DNA from: Leucoraja ocellata
Taxonomy: Eukaryota
Direction: 5' to 3'
DNA: 64,000 bases
Assembly (NCBI GenBank): GCA_036785375.1
Contig: JAWMAR010000073.1
Coordinates: 2,294,001 to 2,358,000, forward strand
Below, one piece after another: positions 12,726-63,334 of this stretch. The notes under the pieces are model-generated. The model saw nothing but the letters and a program-made list of their open reading frames with translations. It was not told the DNA's origin and searched no databases. Position 1 is the stretch's first letter; each line of letters opens with the position of its first letter. Both the position numbers and the translations under genes were made by a program.

Positions 12726-14220
12726 GAACTCTTTAGATTCTGGAGTAGTTCCTGAGGATTGGATGGTAGCTAATGTAACCCCACTTTTTGAAAAGAGAGG
12801 GAGAGAGAAAACGGGGAATTGCTGACCAGTTAGTCTAACATCGGTAGTGGGGAAAATGCTAGAGTCAGTTATTAAAGATGGGATAGCAGCACATTTGGAA
12901 AGTAGTGAAATCATTGGACAAAGTCAGCATGGATTTATGAAAGGTAAATCATGTCTGACGAATCTTATAGAATGTTTCGAAGATGTAACTAGTAGAGTGG
13001 ATAAGGGAGAACCAGTGGATGTGTTATATCTGGACTTTCAGAAGGCTTTTGACAAGGTCCCACATAAGAGATTAGTATGCAAACTTAAAGCACACAGTAT
13101 TGGGGTTTCAGTATTGATGTGGATAGGGAACTGGCTGGCAGACAGGAAGCAAAGAGCAGGAGTAAACGGGTCCTTTTCAGAACGGCAGGCAGTGACTAGT
13201 GGGGTACCACAAGGCTCAGTGCTGGGACCCCAGCTATTTACAATATATATTAATGATTTGGATGAGGGAATTGAATGCAACATCTCCAAGTTTGCGGATG
13301 ACACGAAGCTGGGGGGCAGTGTTAGCTGTGAGGAGGATGCTAGGAGGCTGCAAGGTGACTTGGATAGGTTGGGTGAGTGGGCAAATGCATGGCAGATGCA
13401 GTACAATGTGGATAAATGTGAGGTTATCCACTTTGGTGGGCAAGACCAGGGATTCTTAAGGGGTTAGACAGGCTAGATGCAAGAAGATTGTTCCCGATGT
13501 TGGGGAAGTCCAGAACAAGGGGACACAGTTTAAAGATAAGGGGGAAGTCTTTTAGGACCAAGATAAGAGAAAAAAAATTCACACAGTGGTGAATCTGTGG
13601 AATTCTCTGCCACAAAGTAGTTGAGGCCAGTTCATTGGGTATATTTAAGAGGGAGTTAGATGTGGCCCTTGTGGCTAAAGGGATCAGGGGGTATGGAGAG
13701 AAGGCAGGTACAGGATACCGAGTTGGATGATCAGCCATGATCATATTGAATGGCGGTGCAGGCTTGAAGGGCCGAATCGCCTACTCCTGCACCTGTTTAT
13801 GCACCTATTGTGCTTGGTGGCTGAGCCACCAAGCACGACACCTGGAGGTTGCAGCGAATCGTCCGATCTCTGACCCCTCTCACTCTGGCCACAAACTCTT
13901 TGAATTACTTCCCTCTGGAAGGCGACTCCGGACTGTCAACACTGCCACAGACAGACATAAAAACAGTTTTTATCCACGAGTAGTTGCTCTATTCAACAGA
14001 CAAAAATCTGTTACCTCCCTTTGATCTGGTGTTTTGTTGGTTCACATGCTTGATCAAGGGTGTTTATCATTAAGGTTGTATTATTATTATTGTTCAGTGT
14101 TTTCTGAGTCATTCGCAACTGTCACTGTATGTCATGTTACTTGTGTGCGGAGCACCAAGGCAAATTCCTTGTATGTGAATACTTGGCCAATAAACTTACT
14201 TACTATTTTCTATGTTTCTA
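12726..14220 (+). mobile_element. 5'-truncated CR1 LINE with internal deletion, inside Tc1
   Basis: ORF 12847-13467 has [31 protein letters not shown]; jumps from VIHFGG to the 3' region near 13445; TTCTATGTTTCTA tail. Confidence 0.92.
13805..14203 (+). mobile_element. Rex1/Babar LINE 3' fragment inserted in the CR1 tail
   Basis: DPSHSGHKLFELLPSGRRLRTV..RHKNSFYP motif; AATAAACTTACTTAC tail. Confidence 0.8.
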
Positions 14221-19294: not shown

Positions 19295-21301
19295 ATCATT
19301 TGATAAGGGAACTCGAGCCATTAGGAGGTAGTGAACATAATATGCTATGTTTTAATCTACAATTTGAGAGGGAGAAGGGTAAATCGGAGGTGTTGAGCAA
19401 GGGGGACTATGGAGCCATGAGGGAGGAGTTGGCCAAAGTTGACTGGAAAGATACCCAAGCAGGGATGACAGTGGACAACAATGGCAGGTATTTCTGGGAA
19501 TAATACAGAAGGTGCAGGACCGGTTCATTCCAAAGAGGAAGAAAGATTCCAAGGGGAGTAAGGAGCAACCATGGCTGACAAGGGAAGTCGGGGAGAGTAT
19601 AAAAATAAAAGAGAAGAAATATAACATAGCAAAGATGAGCAGGAAGCCAGAGGATTGGGTAACTTTTAAAGAGGAACAGAAGATAACTACAAAGGCAATA
19701 CGGGGAGAAAAGATGAGGTACGAAGGTAAGCTAGCCAAGAATATAAAGGAGGATAGTAAAAGCTTCCTTAGGTATGTGAAGAGGAAAAAACTAGTTAAGG
19801 CCAAAGTTGGACCCTTGAAGACTGAAAAGGGTGAATTTATTATGGGGAACAAGGAAATGGCAGATGAGTTGAACAGGTACTTGGATCTGTCTTCACTAAG
19901 GAGGATACAAACAATCTTCCTGATGTACTAGTGGCCAGAGGATCTGTAGGACATTCACATTAGGCAGGAAATGGTGATGGGTAGATTGATGGGACTGAAG
20001 ATTGTTAAATCCCCAGGGCTTGATGGTCTACATCCCAGGGTACTTAAGGACGTGGCTCTAGAAATCGTGGACACATTGGTGATCATTTTCCAATGTTCTA
20101 TAGATTCAGGATCAGTTCCTGTGGATTGGAGGGTAGCTAATGTTGTCCCACGCTTTAAGAAGGGCGGCAGAGAGAAAACAGGGAATTATAGACCAGTTAG
20201 CCTGACATTGGTGGTGGGGAAGATGCTGGAGTCAATAATAAAATATGAAATAGCGGTACATTTGGATAGCAGTAGCAGGATTGGTCCAAGTCAGCATGGA
20301 TTTACGAAGGGGAATTCATGCTTGACGAATCTTCTGGAATTTTTTGAGGATGTAATCAGGATAATGGACAAGGGAGAGCCCGTGGATGTGGTGTACCTGA
20401 GTTTTCAGAGAGCATTTGATGAAGTCCCACATAGGAGATTAGTGGGGAAAATTAGAGCACATGGTATTGGGGGTTGGGCGCTTACATGGATAGAAAATTG
20501 GTTGGCAGACAGAAAAACAAAGGGTAGGAATTAACGGGTCCCTTTCAGAATGGCAGGCAGTGACTAGTGGGGTACCGCAAGGTTCGGTGCTGGGACCGCA
20601 GCTATTTACAATATATTAATGATTTGGATGAAGGGATTAAAAGTAACATTAGCAAATTTGCAGATGACACAAAACTGGGTGGCAGTGTGAACTATGAAGA
20701 GGATGCTCTGAGGATGCAGCTTAACTTGGACAAGAAGAGCAAGGTGACGTGCCTCAATGACTATCGACCAGTGACACTAACGTCTGTAGTGATGAAGTCC
20801 TTTGAGAGGCTGATCATGGCGCAAATCAACTCGTACCTCGACAAAAACCTGGACCAATAGTCGGATTTACCAAAGTGAGGGCGAGGGATAGAACGAAAGA
20901 CATCCTTAATGGTGGTGTAGCAGTGGTCGAGGGTGCTTGGTCCTTTGGTGCTGCAGGAAACATGTTGGTGGAAGTTATGGAGCAATTTCTTAAGGTTGAG
21001 GGAATCGAGAACCAGGGGCCATAGTTTAAGATTAAGTGGTAAGCCATTTAGAACGGAGATGAGGAAAAACCTTTTCACACAGAGTTGGGAGTGTGTGGAA
21101 TTCTCTGCCTCAGAGGGTGGTGGAGGCTGGTTCTCTGGATGCTTTCAAGAGAGAGTTAGATAGCTTTTATGGATAGCGGAGTTAAGGGATATGGAGAGAA
21201 GGCAGGTATGGGTTACTGATTGTGGATGATCAGCCATGATCACATTGAATGGCGGTGCTGGCTCGAAGGGCCGAATGGCCTACTGCATCTATTGTCTATT
21301 G
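19295..21301 (+). mobile_element. CR1 LINE (end of endonuclease through RT and 3' UTR), frameshifted, with an internal Rex1 patch
   Basis: PLGGSEHN, KSPGLDGLHPRVLK, NYRPVSLT, QHGF, FADDTK; CR1 3' UTR GGCTCGAAGGGCCGAATGGCCTACT. Confidence 0.92.
20732..20992. mobile_element. Two Rex1/Babar ORF fragments in opposite orientation
   Basis: Plus: [27 protein letters not shown] (RT); minus: FHQHVSCSTKGPSTLDHCYTTIKD..PRPHFGKSD (APE endonuclease). Confidence 0.8.
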
Positions 21302-22088: not shown

Positions 22089-23694
22089 CAGTGGCTTGCA
22101 AAAGTTTTCATACCCCTTGAACTTTTCCACATTTTGTCACGTTACAACCACAAACGTAAATGTATTTTATCGGGATTTTATGTGATAGACCAACACAAAG
22201 TGGTGCATAATTGTGAAGTGGAAGGAAAATGATACATGGTTTTCAAATATTTTTACAAGTAAAAAACTGAAAAGTGTGGCGTGCAAAAGTATTCAGCCCC
22301 CCTGAGTCAATACTTTGTAGAACCACCTTTCGCTGCAATTCCAGCTGCAAGTCTTTTGGGGTATGTCTCTACCAGCTTTGCACATCTAGAGATTGAAATT
22401 TTTGCCCTTTCTTCTTTGCAAAATAGCTCAAGCTCAGTCAGATTGGATGGAGAGCATCTGTGAACAGCAATTTTCAAGTCTTGCCAGAGATTCTCAATTG
22501 GATTTAGGTCTGGACTTTGACTGGGCCATTCTAACACATGAATATGCTTTGATCTAAACCATTCCATTGTAGCTCTGGCTGTATGTTTAGGGTCGTTGTC
22601 CTGCTGGAAGGTGAACCTCCGCCCCAGTCTCAAGCCTTTTGCAGACTCTAACAGGTTTTCTTCCAAGATTGCCCTGTATTTGGCTCCATCCATCTTCCCA
22701 TCAACTCTGACCAGCTTCCCTGTCCCTGCTGAAGAAAAGCATCCCCACAGCATGATGCTGCCACCACCATGTTTCACAATGGGGATGGTGTGTTCAGGGT
22801 GATGTGCAGTGTTAGTTTTCCGCCACACATAGCGTTTTGCATTTAGGCCAAAAACTTCAATTTTGGTCTCATCTGACCAGAGCACCTTCCTCCACATGTT
22901 TGCTGTGTCCCCCACATGGCTTGTGACAAACTGCAAACAGGACTTCTTATGGCTTTTTTTCAACAATGGCTTTCTTCTTGCCACTCTTCCATAAAGGCCC
23001 GATTTGTGGAGTGCACGACTAATAGTTGTCCTGTGGACAGATTCTCCCACCTGAGCTGTGGATCTCTGCAGCTCCTCCAGAGTTACCATGGGCTTCTTGG
23101 CTGCTTCTCTGATCAATGCTCTCCTTGCCCGGCCTGTCAGTTTAGGTGGACGGCCATGTCTTGGTAGGTTTGCAGTTGTGCCATACTCTTTCCATTTTCG
23201 GATGATGGATTGAACAGTGCTCCGTGAGATGTTCAAAGCTTGGGATATTTTTTTATAACCTAACCCTGCTTTAAACTTCTCCACAACTTTATCCCTGACC
23301 TGTCTGGTGTGTTCCTTGTGCTTCATGATGCTGTTTGTTCACTAATGTTCTCTAACAAACCTCTGAGGCCTTCACAGAACAGCTGTATTTATACTGAGAT
23401 TAGATTACACACAAGTGGACTCTATTTACTAATTAGGTGACTTCTGAAGGCAATTGGTTGTACTGGATTTTATTTTGGCGTATCAGAGTAAAGGGGGCTG
23501 AATATTTTTGCACGCCACACTTTTCAGTTTTTTATTTGTAAAAAAATTTGAAAACCTTCTATCATTTTCCTTCCACTTCACAATTATGTGCCACTTTGTG
23601 TTGGTCTATCACATAAAATCCCAATAAAATACATTTACGTTTGTGGTTGTAACGTGACAAAATGTGGAAAAGTTCAAGGGGTATGAATACTTTT
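22089..23694 (-). mobile_element. Passport-like Tc1 IR/DR transposon, one TIR missing its outer ~11 bp
   Basis: ~210-bp TIRs (22089-22301 vs 23491-23694) with outer and inner DRs; TA at the left end; right end stops at TACTTTT without GCAAGCCACTG-TA. Confidence 0.95.
22307..23326 (-). CDS. Tc1 DD34E transposase, uninterrupted 339 aa, Passport-like
   Basis: Paired-like HTH, GRPP, WSDETK, FQQDNDPKH, SPDLNPIENLW; 34 residues counted between the second D and E; closely resembles flatfish Passport transposase from recall. Confidence 0.95.
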   Translation of the reverse strand: MKHKEHTRQVRDKVVEKFKAGLGYKKISQALNISRSTVQSIIRKWKEYGTTANLPRHGRPPKLTGRARRALIREAAKKPMVTLEELQRSTAQVGESVHRTTISRALHKSGLYGRVARRKPLLKKSHKKSCLQFVTSHVGDTANMWRKVLWSDETKIEVFGLNAKRYVWRKTNTAHHPEHTIPIVKHGGGSIMLWGCFSSAGTGKLVRVDGKMDGAKYRAILEENLLESAKGLRLGRRFTFQQDNDPKHTARATMEWFRSKHIHVLEWPSQSPDLNPIENLWQDLKIAVHRCSPSNLTELELFCKEERAKISISRCAKLVETYPKRLAAGIAAKGGSTKY

Positions 23695-55749: not shown

Positions 55750-57905
55750 ACATAGAAACATAGAAATTAGGTGCAGGAGTAGGTCATTCGGCCCTTCGAG
55801 CCTGCACCGCCATTCAATATGATCATGGCTGACCATCCAACTCAGTATCCCGTACCTGCCTTCTCTCCATACCCTCTGATCCCCTTAGCCACAAGGGCCA
55901 CATCTAACTCCCTCTTAAATATAGCCAATGAACTGGCCTCGACTACCCTCTGCGGCAGAGAGTTCCAGAGATTCACCACTCTCTGTGTGAAAAAAGTTAT
56001 TCTCATCTCGGTTTTAAAGGATTTCCCCCTTATCCTTAAGCTGTGACCCCTTGTCCTGGACTTCCCCAACATCGGGAGCAATCTTCCTACATCTAGTCTG
56101 TCCAACCCCTTAAGAATTTTGTAAGTTTCTATAAGATCCCCTCTCAATCTCCTAAATTCTAGAGAGTATAAACCAAGTCTATCCAGTCTTTCTTCATAAG
56201 ACAGTCCTGACATCCCAGGAATCAGTCTGGTGAACCTTCTCTGCACTCCCTCTATGGCAATAATGTCCTTCCTCAGATTTGGAGACCAAAACTGTACGCA
56301 ATACTCCAGGTGTGGTCTCACCAAGACCCTGTACAACTGCAGTAGAACCTCCCTGCTCCTATACTCAAATCCTTTTGCTATGAAAGCTAACATACCATTC
56401 ACTTTCTTCACTGCCTGCTGCACCTGCATGCCTACTTTCAATGACTGGTGTACCATGACACCCAGGTCTCGCTGCATCTCTCCTTTTCCTAGTCGGCCAC
56501 CATTCAGATAATAGTCTGCTTTCCTGTTTTTGCCACCAAAATGGATAACCTCACATTTATCCACATTATACTGCATCTGCCAAACATTTGCCCACTCACC
56601 CACCCTATCCAAGTCACCTTGCAGTCTCCTAGCATACTCCTCACAGCTAACACTGCCTCCCAGCTTAGTGTAATCTGCAAACTTGGAGATATTGCCTTCA
56701 ATTCCCTCATCCAGATCATTAATATATATTGTAAATAGCTGGTGTCCCAGCACTGAGCCTTGCGGTACCCCACTAGTCACTGCCTGCCATTGTGAAAAGG
56801 ACCCGTTTACTCCTACTCTTTGCTTCCTGTTTGCCAGCCAGTTCTCTATCCACATCAATACTGAACCTCCAATGCCGTGTGCTTTAAGTTTGTATACTAA
56901 TCTCTTATGTGGGACCTTGTCGAAAGCCTTCTGGAAGTCCAGATACACCACATCCACTGGTTCTCCCCTATCCACGCTACTAGTTACATCCTCGAAAAAT
57001 TCTATAAGATTCGTCAGACATGATTTACCTTTCGTAAATCCATGCTGACTTAGTCCAATGATTTCACCACTTTCCAAATGTGCTGCTATCCCATCTTTAA
57101 TAACTGACTCTAATAGTTTCCCCACTACCGATGTTAGACTAACTGGTCTGTAATTCCCCGTTTTCTCTCTCCCTCCCTTCTTAAAAAGTGGGGTTACGTT
57201 TGCTACCCGCCAATCCTCAGGAACTACTCCAGAATCTAAAGAGTTTTGAAAGATTATTACTAATGCATCTATTATTATTATTACTAATGCTATTTCTGGA
57301 GCTACTTCTTTAAGTACTCTGGGATGCAGCCTATCTGGCCCTGGGGATTTATCGGCCATTAATCCATTCAATTTACCCAACACCACTTCCCGGCTAACCT
57401 GGATTGCACTCAATTCCTCCAAATCCTTTGACCCGCGGTCCCCTGCTATTTCCGGCAAATTATTTATGTCTTCCTTAGTGAAGACGGAACCAAAGTAGTT
57501 ATTCAATTGGTCCGCCATATCCTTGTTCCCCATGATCAACTCACCTGTTTCTGACTGCAAGGGACCTACATTTGTTTTAACTAATCTCTTTCTTTTCACA
57601 TATCTATAAAAACTTTTGCAGTCAGTTTTTATGTTCCCTGCCAGTTTTCTTTCATAATCTATTTTTCCTTTCCTAATTAAGCCCTTTGTCCTCCTCTGCT
57701 GGTCTTTGAATTTCTCCCAGTCCTCCAGTATGCTGCTTTTTCTGGCTAATTTGTACGCATCATCCTTCACTTTGATACTATCCCTGATTTCCCTTGTTAT
57801 CCACGGATGTACTACCTTCCCTGATTTATTCTTTTGCCAAACTGGGATGAACAATTTTTGTAGTTCATCCATGCAGTCTTTAAATGTCTTCCATTTCATA
57901 TGCAT
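55750..57905 (-). mobile_element. Young 5'-truncated CR1 LINE (subfamily A)
   Basis: CATAGAAACATAGAAA tail; 3' part nearly identical to the copy at 32091-32695. Confidence 0.95.
55842..57905 (-). pseudogene. CR1 ORF2 fragment, 687 aa open (RT plus C-terminus, no endonuclease), catalytic D mutated
   Basis: All RT motifs present, but FADDTK reads FADYTK and VLGP reads VLGH. Confidence 0.9.
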
Positions 57906-59384
57906 ACATGGGTCGTAAATCTGTCAACTTAATTAATAAGTGTTTGGTGCAAGGATACAACTTCATTTTAATTTGCAGCCCCTTTCCTGCTATCTAGAAG
58001 CTGGATTTCCAATCTCACTAAAATATTACAGAACAAAGCGTAAATTCACAACTCAGACCATTACATCAGAATTACATCTGCTTCTTCGACTTTCTATAAA
58101 CATAGGAAGGTCACATATCCATCAATCTAATTATTTTCCTCTCCAAGCAACTACTCCCCTTCATACACATCCTACGCCTTATCTCAATCTCATTATAATT
58201 TGACTTAGCCAAAGCTAAATTACAGTCTATTATCTCTCAGCCTTGAATTCTGTCTGAAACTCAGCATAACCCTCACAGCTCAAGAATGTGCCATAGAGAA
58301 AGAGCAGAGGACCTCTGACCTAAGGAGAGGCCCCATTCAGTAATCCATTCTTCAACACAATCATATCAAATACAATTTCCTCCAGCGATACGATTGCCTC
58401 AAAGCAATAAACTAAGCTATGCAGGTTCAGATCAGTGCCTCTATGCTTTGATTCTTCTGTTCGCTGTATGTGTCTCTTTGCACTTTATTTCTCTAGGACA
58501 CATGTGTTTCTGAAAACCTTAAGCTTTTCTTTTGCAAATTACCTAGCTTATATAAAAGTCACTATCCGAGCGGTTCTATTATATAATATTTCCTCAAAAG
58601 AATGGGTCTGTCAATGTTTGGTACCACTGGGGGTGAAATAATATGCAATTGCGTTGTATGCTGCTGAACTTTACTGGGTGGAAGCAGCATACTCAAGAGA
58701 CCTTGAAGGTACAGCAAGGGTATTAATTAGTTCGTTTTTTCCATAATCTACAAACGCCCTCTCCCTAAGCATTAAAATGAATGGGATGATTTTACATAGG
58801 TTTGTCCTTGTACCCCTTATTGAACAATGATGTACCATTAGGCTCTCAACTCTGTTGCAAGTTAATGGGCTAAGATGTTTTTGTACCTTGCAGCTGTAAA
58901 TGAATATATTTTGCAGAAAATTAAAGGTTCAAGAGGCCATGTTAAACCCACACTACCGTATTCAAGTCTTTGTGCTACCGAGGCAAATCCACACTTAAAC
59001 ATTTGGGAAAGACCCAAGCAGAGGAACAGACTTTTATCGTGTCATTTTGTTTATATATTCAACACTATTGTGTTTCTCTGTTGGCGTACTGGATTCTCAA
59101 GATTGTCTATTTCACTGCCCCTCACATGAGCTTTTCCTAAGTACAGAGGCAGGCTTTAGAAAAGATAATCAGGTAGAAATTATTTAAGCCGGATGCTGTT
59201 TTGTGCCTCACTTTGTTGTCGACTCAAAGATTCTCTGCAGAACCCACTGTGCTGTTTCACCAGAGAGACCGAGTGCTCTGACTACAATTTCTTTTGCATA
59301 ATTTATGCCTACCAATTAAATCTGCTTCTATGGTAACTTGCAAAAATGCTTGTTGTGTTGCGCAGTTGAAATACCTCCATTTTG

Positions 59385-60470: not shown

Positions 60471-62049
60471 CCCTCTTGGTGTTACCCTCTTGTTTTTAAT
60501 GTATGTATGCTAACAGGAGAGTTGCTGAAGGAATTCAGCATCTTTGGAGGGAAATGGACATTTGACATTTTGGGTCACAGTTTCCCTTCATCTCGATTGT
60601 GTTTTGTGAATCTGGCATTTTGCTAAATGGTGTAGATTCCCAGCTGGGCAACTCAAAACTAGACTTCCCAGAATTTACCAAGTATTATAATCAGCAGGAG
60701 AATTTTGTCCTGACTCTTCAATTGTATTCACTATCATTGTAGCATAAGTGAAAGTTGTTTGCATTTAGTTACTCAAGTTAATCTGTTTAAATTGGCTATA
60801 GTTATGAAATATATTAATGAGTTTACTAAAAGCGTCCCATGTTGGAAATGAAGTAAGATATGACTTTATCTCCTTCCCCATTAACTCTGAACTTTGAGGA
60901 AATTGGCATTATGTAGAAATGTTGTCCAGAAATGTACTATTGTATTTTCTATTACTTGAACAATAAAATAAAGTTTATCAGCTTGGTCCATCACTTAGGC
61001 TGACATAGCACAACTGTTCTGGACAATGTTTTGCCCCTCCTGTCTCGATACTGAGCTCATTATCCTTCTAGTCTACTGATTGGGGAATGTTTCCATTCTG
61101 GAACCAATGTTAATACTCCATCTTAAGCAAAGCCAATTACATTTTTGTGTGATGATGAGAGAGGATGTCATTGTCTAATCTGAATTCCTGATGGCTCTTT
61201 CACTTTTATATCCAGCCTGGCTTTATTTCTGATGTGCAATTTCTGGAGCTGGTGCAGTATCTACATCAGTCCCCCAAGATATTTTGGCTTGGTTGTGGAG
61301 CATTCGTGTCATATGAACAGATTGAACCACTGAATAAACCAAAATAGTTACTATGTATATTTTCCTTGTATACCACTGACTAGGAAGAGTGATGCTGCTT
61401 TTGTGACCTATGAATTAATTGGGTATCAATTTGTATGGGTGAATCCTTTTTAGCCTCCAGCATGCGATGACCTTTCAAAAATAAATTCACATTGTGGTCA
61501 CTGTGGGTTAGCACATTTTTGATGAGGGTACTCCATTGGTTACTGCATTAATTAGTCTTTTTCAAAATACTTGTTTGCTTCGAATCTTTTACAGCAAACT
61601 ATTTTATCTGTTTTTTTGTTCCATTAGCGATGTGTATGGATACTTTCTTGAAAATGGGCAGACCTGCGGGTGGAGGGGGAGGGGTTTAAAGACTTGGTCT
61701 AACGCAAAGACCGACCACTCCTGCAAAATCCAATGGACTGAGTGTAGTATGCAACGGAGCGTAACTTCTGCCATTTCAGTAAACCCGACCCGACTTCAAT
61801 TATGCCCCTCGCAGTGTAATCAGCGTTGCTGGGGAACAGTTTGTGTGTTTTTAAATGTTTTTAAAAAAATTATTTTTAAATGCAGTAAACCCTCATCAAT
61901 TTCCCCCATCACTGTCAGCACTGCGTTGGTCGCTATTTGCTGAAGTAAGTGTGTGTGTGTGTGTGGAAACTTGCGTGATTGTTAATCTGACTGGAAGCCA
62001 AATCTGACTGGACACACGCTAATACACACGAAAACGGCACATACCTTGT

Positions 62050-62317
62050 ACAGGGAGGAACTGCAGATGCTGGTTTAAACTGAAGACAGACACAAAAGGC
62101 TGGAGTAAATCAGCAGATCAGGCAGCATCTCTGGAGAAAAGGAATAGGAGATATTTCGTGTCAACTGGTCTTCTTCAGACTGACAGTCAAGTGAAAGGGA
62201 AACGGGAGATATAGGCATATCTTCCATTCATTTGTCCTTAGTACCGTCTATATCTCTTGTTCCTCTTTCCCCTGACTCAGTCTGAAGAAGGGTCTCGACC
62301 CGAAATGTCACCTATTC
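62050..62317. repeat. Inverted pair of Penelope pLTR fragments inside the TIR element
   Basis: Minus pLTR 62050-62215, then plus pLTR 62225-62317; a further plus piece at 62625-62730. Confidence 0.7.
62282..62309 (+). ncRNA. Minimal hammerhead-ribozyme-like motif (Penelope type)
   Basis: CTGAAGA-A-GGGTC-TC-GACCC-GAAA-T-GTC: conserved boxes and stem II; stem III collapsed; stem I not clearly resolved. Confidence 0.55.
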
Positions 62318-62435
62318 AGCTCTATGATCTTTGCTTCTGTTCGTTTGTCCGCGCGTTCGCTTGCTCTTGGTGCCGGCGCTTCTCCCCTCAGACTCCGCCA
62401 AACAAATGCACATGCACACGCACCCACACAGATGG

Positions 62436-62518
62436 GTGCGGGCCGAGACCAGGAGCAGGGCGAAGGATGACATCAAACGGGTCATGGCAGCTATCGAAAA
62501 AATACGGAAATGGCAAGG
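62436..62518 (+). pseudogene. BCL7A: BCL7A-like exon 1 fragment (SWI/SNF subunit BCL7 N-terminus) with donor remnant
   Basis: [26 protein letters not shown] matches the conserved BCL7 N-terminus (KRVMAA is A-type); MSGRS start absent; similarity ends at AAATG|GCAAGG. Confidence 0.88.
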
Positions 62519-63334
62519 GAGAAATGTTTATAAAACACCCGAAGGAAATAGATGTTTAACAAAAAAAAGGGTGCCGGCGATCGCTCCGTGTCCGTGCTGG
62601 AGGGGGGGGCGGGGGATGGCTTGAGTTCCTCTTTCTCTTGACTCAGTCTGAAGACGGGTCTCGACCTGAAATGTCACCTATTCCTTTTGTCCAGAAATGC
62701 CGCCCGACTCGCTGCATTTTGGTCTATCCTTTAATCTCTCAGCCTGATATATCAGAATCTCCCTGAATTAGCTTGATGTCATGACGGAAGCCGGTTACGG
62801 AAATGGCGCTGAAGATTACCCATCACCTACTACGGCTTTTTCGCGGAGTGAACCATGTTGCTCTGCTCTATGATCTTTGGTCTAAAGGATAAATAGTGCC
62901 TCCTTTGCTGTAAAATCCTATAGAGAAATGTACATGGCTCAGGGTTGAGTACATGTTCAACATGCTTTACAGTTGATGATTTTCAAATAATTCAGTACAT
63001 GTTAGAGGTAGCTGTTTTCTGCTGCTTTTTAAAAAACAAACAGTTGTGAAGAAAATCAGCAGTGCAGTGTCCTGGGAGCACAAATTGAAGCTATAAGATT
63101 GATTTGATATAGCTGACAGCTAAATATTGATCTGAGCATCTAATTCCCTGACAACTTCACCTAATCGTAAATAAAGTTGTCAGAGTATTTAGATTTGTGT
63201 GTTGATTTCAGAAATCCCCCCAAAAATGTCTTGGAGGTAATATTTAGTGCTGTAACAAATCACTTCTGTGACAAAATAATTCACATTTTCAATTCAAGTT
63301 CTATAACTTCATTCAGAAAGACATACCATTATGA

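Follow-up and report, generated by a model that had tools for sequence, protein, structure and literature searches.

Capture of host gene fragments by cut-and-paste transposons, followed by their amplification, is routine in plants and, among the animals surveyed, rare and low in copy number (PMC8277862). The survey of 100 animal genomes by Tan et al. (2021) gives 370 captured-fragment elements with terminal inverted repeats (Pack-TIRs), four of them multicopy; multicopy examples in animals are Pack-hAT-N8_XT of Xenopus tropicalis, with 5' UTR of CAPSL, and Ssk-FB4 of Drosophila (PMC8277862). None of the 370 rows in supplement file 7 of that survey is assigned to the P superfamily, the elephant shark is given with zero Pack-TIRs, and capture by P is described there only after artificial activation in flies; the survey pipeline relies on annotated consensus elements and may miss cases of end bypass (PMC8277862). 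High-copy capture in vertebrates has precedent through other mechanisms, given that gene capture by Helitrons is known in bats and frogs (PMC4224331, PMC12001565). As regards the P element itself, cleavage in Drosophila leaves a 17-nt stagger, and insertion prefers promoter regions with a tendency to local hopping (PMC7776569; PMC10983969). The element analysed here, from the skate Leucoraja ocellata, is almost certainly a multicopy Pack-P element, a high-copy vertebrate member of the Pack-TIR class that carries the first coding exon of BCL7A. We found no earlier report of the family in the literature; Repbase and Dfam lay outside that search, and a catalogue entry may exist.

The DNA examined (the window) is a stretch of 64,000 nucleotides, C73:2294001-2358000, in an assembly of 3.44 Gb that is partly haplotype-duplicated. 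Its transposon unit spans 61705-62879 (1,175 bp), starts with CAAAGA, ends with TCTTTG and lies between GTCTAACG (61697-61704) and GTCTAAAG (62880-62887), which agree at 7 of 8 positions, as a preliminary description of the sequence had read it (Table 1). The terminal repeats of that description are present, except that the left one is short by 18 bp of a true length of ~34-36 bp; the missing letters are found in the other haplotype (L002) and in one related organism (C). The peptide coded at 62436-62513, taken there for the BCL7 N-terminus, indeed matches Pfam BCL_N (PF04714, E 7.6e-13, profile positions 4-29) and human BCL7A chains in the PDB, and the segment is CpG-rich as stated, with CpG o/e of 0.77-1.47 across 62300-62600 compared to 0.40 for the whole window. 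The BCL7A ATG was lost through a 10-bp deletion, in-frame ATGs stand at 62406 and 62412, and the stop codon at the donor is gone. The first 144 bp of the left arm show 81% identity to the end of a decayed P element on C141, and the arm matches the downstream end of two autonomous elements introduced below; the right arm, common to sister non-autonomous elements, is 70% alike over 110 bp to the same C141 element. Since the left end is a P 3' end, the cargo runs antisense to the direction of the transposase. The arms of the central hairpin (62185-62214 and 62248-62277) come from the family's ancestral palindrome, and the inverted BCL7A arm present in sister copies is missing from this one.

Table 1. 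Parts of the Pack-P element in the window (positions count from the first letter of the window).
Feature	Position	Strand	Basis
Left target-site duplication, 8 bp, 7/8 against the right one	61697..61704		sequence comparison
Left arm, P element 3' end; terminal inverted repeat with 18-bp internal deletion	61705..62033	-	sequence comparison
SINE-like repeat fragments (abundant repeat; class name presumptive) and central hairpin	62034..62316		sequence comparison
Internal 17-bp stub of P terminal repeat, facing the captured DNA	62317..62333	+	junction comparison across loci
Captured BCL7A 5' UTR, from parent position -109 relative to ATG; ATG deleted here	62334..62428	+	parent alignment
Remnant of BCL7A coding exon 1, 84/92 nt; codons R4, R7, R11 retained	62429..62512	+	parent alignment, PF04714, PDB matches
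Start of BCL7A intron 1; donor GT changed to GC; ends at parent +195; internal poly-G expansion	62513..62626	+	parent alignment
Another SINE-like fragment; place taken by segment X (135 bp) in other copies	62627..62782	+	copy comparison
Right arm, P element 5' end; terminal inverted repeat intact (~62844-62879)	62783..62879	-	sequence comparison
Right target-site duplication	62880..62887		sequence comparison

The parent gene, placed by a genome search with the Rhinoraja longicauda protein P0113, is the genuine BCL7A on contig C39: exon 1 lies at 7010241, exons 2-5 come after it in the expected order, and exon 6 was found in addition; exons 2-6 share 90-100% identity with P0113. A BCL7 paralogue on C8 is 76% alike over exon 1. 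The window element and C39 are 84% identical across 294 aligned columns that begin in the 5' UTR, cover exon 1 and enter intron 1; this is the match beyond the splice donor that the preliminary description had proposed to look for. Its reading that similarity stops at the donor thus holds for the protein and fails for the DNA: the intron-like sequence it had noticed there is BCL7A intron 1, behind a donor that reads GC in the window copy and GT in the parent. Capture at the DNA level rather than by retrocopying is confirmed by the same alignment. Of BCL7A the cargo holds ~305 bp, made up of coding exon 1, the 109 bp of 5' UTR before it and ~100 bp of the intron behind it; its GC content is 54% and its CpG o/e 1.21. 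In most copies, among the loci fetched, the parent match starts near -110 and ends near +184 from the ATG; beyond a poly-G expansion it resumes to +195. Breakpoints common to the copies, at -109 and +195, point to a single capture event. BCL7 exons 2-6 were found neither in the window nor in the 30 kb after it, and, unlike a processed pseudogene, the element keeps intron 1 and lacks exon 2; a retrocopy and a genuine gene are thereby excluded.

That the window unit did not arise by chance follows from the dispersed family to which it belongs, with 155 matches in the genome (40 candidates scored). With up to 2 mismatches allowed, a 26-mer taken from the exon is present 345 times, the parent counted, and with up to 1 mismatch a pattern across the junction of P end and BCL7A is present 503 times, each with 0 occurrences in the control; among 475 candidates for PF04714, the 150 scored all pass the cut-off and none extends to the profile end. 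Raw counts are inflated because the window is repeated on C218 and some copies hold the exon twice. The duplicate at C218:3354001-3428000 covers the entire window at 97-99% identity, many repeat copies are paired likewise, and it is likely an unpurged haplotype. The 29 loci with a right end reduce to 18 sites (L016 is without right end). Scaling 344 occurrences by 18/29 and by ~0.8 for second arms yields ~170, and allowing for a pattern sensitivity of 73% yields ~230, so that we estimate 170-230 BCL7A-carrying insertions, about 200. This scale, like the internal P-end stub at the junction and the inverted arm of sister copies, goes beyond the preliminary description. Its expectation of dispersed copies with different duplications was realised: copies sit in unrelated flanks far from the parent, with 8-bp duplications of their own. 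An 8-bp duplication that agrees at 7 or all 8 positions flanks 15 of the 22 distinct insertions in which cargo and both ends are present (8 of these duplications are perfect; raw counts); the remaining 7 insertions agree at 6/8 or less, while registers of 7 and 9 bp do not fit.

Three features of the Pack-TIR class were found here: host DNA with an identifiable parent between the ends, a parent that is itself not flanked by the TIR element, and multiple distant copies with distinct duplications and GC-rich cargo. With the multicopy Pack-TIRs of animals the family shares a non-autonomous TIR element holding ~300 bp of GC-rich DNA from a gene's 5' end, as well as distinct target duplications at places remote from the parent (PMC8277862). 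It differs from the surveyed elements in the whole coding exon with its donor, in the internal end stub and in scale, Pack-hAT-N8_XT of the frog having three copies against the estimated 170-230 insertions (PMC8277862). As a TIR element, presumably moved in trans, in which GC-rich gene fragments have multiplied, it resembles plant Pack-MULE and Pack-TYPE elements, which reach several or many copies (PMC8277862; see also PMC8903248). It is set apart from them by its vertebrate host, by P in place of MULE, CACTA or hAT, and by the one gene donor found besides the unplaced segment X. The skate P family means that plant-style amplification occurs in vertebrates too when a transposase is active.

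Terminal inverted repeats of the P superfamily start with CANRG, and the ends of the family begin with CAAAG on both strands. The superfamily proposed in the preliminary description, together with the autonomous P/THAP partner it suggested searching for, was found. Among 129 genome matches to PF21788, 13 loci were examined with wide flanks, and two of them, L099 (C294, L099:1161-8058; 6,898 bp) and L100 (C649, L100:2442-8898; 6,457 bp), are bounded by terminal repeats of the Pack family's type with 8/8 duplications each. They have open frames of 811 and 857 codons, respectively, and PF21787, PF21788 and PF21789 in both; PF12017 is above the cut-off in L099 and below it in L100, and L099 has a THAP domain above the cut-off, split across two upstream exons. 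The two are 98% identical, which suggests recent activity of their subfamily, and, judged from their sequences, full-length-looking autonomous P elements may still be active. The ends nearest to those of the Pack family are found in the decayed P element on C141 (81% in 175 columns). By ends and partner, the BCL7A carrier is a non-autonomous member of the P superfamily; the hAT superfamily also makes 8-bp duplications, and P elements suffice to explain the ends. The system is like Drosophila P and zebrafish Pdre2/THAP9 in its 8-bp duplication, in a transposase with THAP, RNase H and GTP-binding domains, in internally deleted derivatives and in the short end stubs that excision would leave; the terminal repeat of ~34-36 bp compares with 31 in the fly and 13 in zebrafish (PMC7776569, PMC10983969). 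Further long transposase frames lie on C424, C376, C561, C2140 and C1483, the open frames ranging overall from 700 to 890 codons. Four loci (L089, L090, L093, L094) represent a sister non-autonomous P family lacking BCL7A, with ~1 kb of common interior in which several end stubs lie, and this family may be a carrier of further host DNA. At C60:1017458 and C60:1143500, terminal repeats face each other 126 kb apart.

The route of capture must be read from the junction. In most of 36 loci examined, the last 15-18 bp of the P terminal repeat stand directly before the cargo, with a SINE-like repeat on the other side of the stub; in undamaged copies the stub equals the terminal repeat for 17-18 bp. 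A P terminus followed by parent position -109 places BCL7A outside the P end, where flanking DNA sits after an insertion. We lean, with moderate confidence, towards capture by a P insertion in the BCL7A 5' UTR, its excision, and the joining of the stub-bearing end into another P derivative. A P element would have inserted transiently at -109 and been excised, leaving a 17-18-bp P stub on the broken gene end; this end would then have joined SINE-like DNA within a second P-derived element through 2-3 bp of microhomology. The stub junction, the relics described next, the promoter relic among them, the autonomous partners and the parent match would together make such a route likely.

Short P relics consisting of two end stubs number 6,062 genome-wide by exact pattern as opposed to 9 in the control, on average one per 568 kb; the count omits relics with mismatches, the one in the BCL7A promoter included. 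Among 50 listed matches they are 28-41 bp long, and symmetric ones reach 19+19 bp, a hint that the vertebrate P transposase cuts with a stagger of 19-20 nt, compared with 17 nt for Drosophila P (PMC7776569). In the loci examined, 15 of 20 relics lie between 8-bp repeats that agree at 6 or more positions (examples of relics are in L034, L038, L067, L107 and L117). We infer that they are excision footprints, and some lie inside other repeats, so not all are independent events. The 30 kb of the parent locus hold a single P relic (38 bp; C39:7008705-7008742, L061:5705-5742), with a 7/8 flanking repeat and 1.5 kb upstream of the BCL7A ATG; it is one case, and P favours promoters regardless. With the stub at the junction, likely excision relics in their thousands and full-length transposase genes, this single genome offers the means to test how the exon was captured.

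Several observations weaken capture through excision. The parent shows today neither footprint nor duplication at -109, and against the family's target preference this site scores below all 20 true sites in leave-one-out comparison and reaches no more than the top 12% of the background. The parent reads ATCTTT across the junction and so agrees with the P end in six of its seven final letters. Stubs also depart from the terminal repeat, a G replacing its T in 76 of 100 exact junction matches among those listed. Lastly, at the 3' breakpoint, +195, BCL7A is joined to segment X, a stretch of 135 bp that separates the BCL7A part from the P 5' arm (e.g., L038:1694-1830). Breakpoint microhomology amounts to a possible 6 bp at the 5' junction, and the 3' side leads into a segment whose source was not found in the BCL7A, paralogue or P loci. 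Of its 233 genome candidates, 40 matches were scored and 20 of these examined, and all look like derivatives of the family; segment X is possibly a second cargo.

Alternatively, no P element ever sat in BCL7A, and the exon was acquired by template switching, in gap filling or according to FoSTeST, a published model for multicopy animal Pack-TIRs (PMC8277862). Synthesis would have reached the P terminus, jumped via ATCTTT into the open CpG island of BCL7A, copied ~305 bp and switched back before the product transposed. The 6-bp microhomology of P end and parent speaks for this course, as do the unmarked and poorly scoring site at -109 and an element rich in hairpins and rearrangements. We regard it as possible though doubtful: a switch at ATCTTT yields no extra letters completing the P terminus, unless the parent lost them later; a gap filler is expected inside the terminus, and the cargo lies outside; and the stub has the same length as in the excision relics.

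Joint transposition of two P copies flanking exon 1, with later deletion of the inner parts, would explain the outward-facing internal P end beside the cargo; the P relic near the BCL7A promoter and the known local hopping of P (PMC7776569) fit it as well. It would call for a P end at +195, where segment X is found instead, and the end-like stub of the right arm, rejected as a second signature of capture, is an ordinary subterminal part of autonomous P ends (L109), which leaves such composite transposition very improbable. Extra P-end stubs joined elsewhere within the BCL7A piece, in L118 (C373) and L073 (C3065), suggest re-insertion into the cargo and subsequent deletion. Origin without any transposon, as a retrocopy, BCL7 paralogue or segmental duplication, is hardly conceivable and refuted by the retained intron 1, the copies' unrelated flanks and own duplications, and the absent downstream exons, the real gene (with exons 2-6; the preliminary description had named the splicing of downstream exons to this segment as the refuting case) and the paralogue sitting elsewhere, and the full-length 97-99% repeat on C218, its one favourable point, concerning the insertion site and not BCL7A.

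Capture through excision, which we continue to prefer, would have been followed by rearrangement of the element. A second, inverted piece of cargo, often ending at +82, is present in 22 of 57 copies examined, and the same junction recurs in 8 loci. An early fold-back would have produced this second arm, from -109 to +82. The predicted fold of L011 is a hairpin of ~260 bp at -452 kcal/mol (z -44; 0 of 100 shuffles). In six copies compared, the palindrome arms differ by 9-16% against a median of 11.7% between copies, which indicates that the palindrome is old, and no homogenisation between arms was seen in these six. Composite insertions of maize Ac/Ds present an analogy, in that aberrant transposition gives inverted duplications foldable to long double-stranded RNA; the maize hairpin consists of transposon sequence, with siRNAs shown, whereas the skate hairpin consists of host exon sequence and is a prediction from DNA (bioRxiv 10.1101/2020.01.07.897926).

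Divergence of the copies from the parent is 5.8-13.3%, and a tree of 35 copies and the parent (L114 omitted) is star-like, 19 of its 33 inner branches being open. A THAP9-type transposase would have spread the family in trans, in one old burst, with neutral decay thereafter. The preliminary description had looked to related skates for an empty site; none was found, and the left junction is filled in all four related organisms compared (C, D, E and F), the comparison covering the flank on the left and the element's first 135 bp. The insertion thus predates their split, their orthologous left flanks showing 9-57 differing letters over 740-930 bp. Compared with the parent, 17 copies picked for their DNA similarity differ at 7.2% of the sites in exon 1 and at 8.5% of those in the intron; of 83 codons with a single change, 21 are synonymous, compared to 24-32% expected (P 0.63), so the codon test on these copies gives no sign of family-wide purifying selection on the exon. 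A set of 29 loci ranked by protein (34/81 synonymous) was set aside as having been chosen for protein similarity. The 17 copies keep the ATG in 12 cases and the GT donor in 15. A peptide of 30-31 residues, ending at the donor stop, is open in 11 of 22 translated copies and in 0 of 5 copies found via segment X. Neutral decay of a moderately old family fits these data, and selection on a few copies would be compatible with them.

Among short BCL7 proteins in the public collection, 30 of 76 were inspected; none is recognisably from the element, and by appearance they derive from exon 1 of ordinary BCL7 genes. The proteins P0130, P0150, P0151 and P0170-P0181 represent a BCL7 exon-1 read-through product in many versions, one of them found on 267 contigs; they are probably orthologues from related species, a second amplified family being the possible alternative.

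The first 30 residues of human BCL7A bind the nucleosome acidic patch via R4, R7 and R11 (PMC11983133). The captured exon corresponds almost exactly to this segment, so that even a rare co-option would be consequential. The family could permanently supply skates with regulators directed at BCL7A, with at least one copy co-opted; on the sequences available, we consider this unlikely. Were it the case, hairpin RNAs of 250 bp and small RNAs directed at the 5' UTR and exon 1 of BCL7A would arise from palindromic copies, and copies that retain ATG and donor would either code for the isolated 31-residue piece, which in human BCL7A grips the acidic patch, or splice it onto neighbouring genes as a new first exon. 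The copies appear to decay without function. They are liable in any event to confuse BCL7A annotation and read mapping in skates.

As to the surroundings of the insertion, no host gene was identified, 20 of the 36 long window ORFs having been scanned with matches to reverse transcriptase and Tc1 only, and Rfam gave no family at a meaningful level. The SINE-like repeat (62034-62316, 62627-62782 and many other places in the window), likewise lacking an Rfam match, has a core of CTGAAGA, a short hairpin and GAAA, which we take to resemble the minimal hammerhead ribozyme motif. A 343-codon open frame at 22307-23338 (-) encodes a transposase of Tc1/Sleeping Beauty type (PF01498, PF25787, PF13358). 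Reverse transcriptase frames (PF00078) at 12826-13467 (+), 19950-20534 (+) and 55842-57923 (-) are likely LINE remnants.
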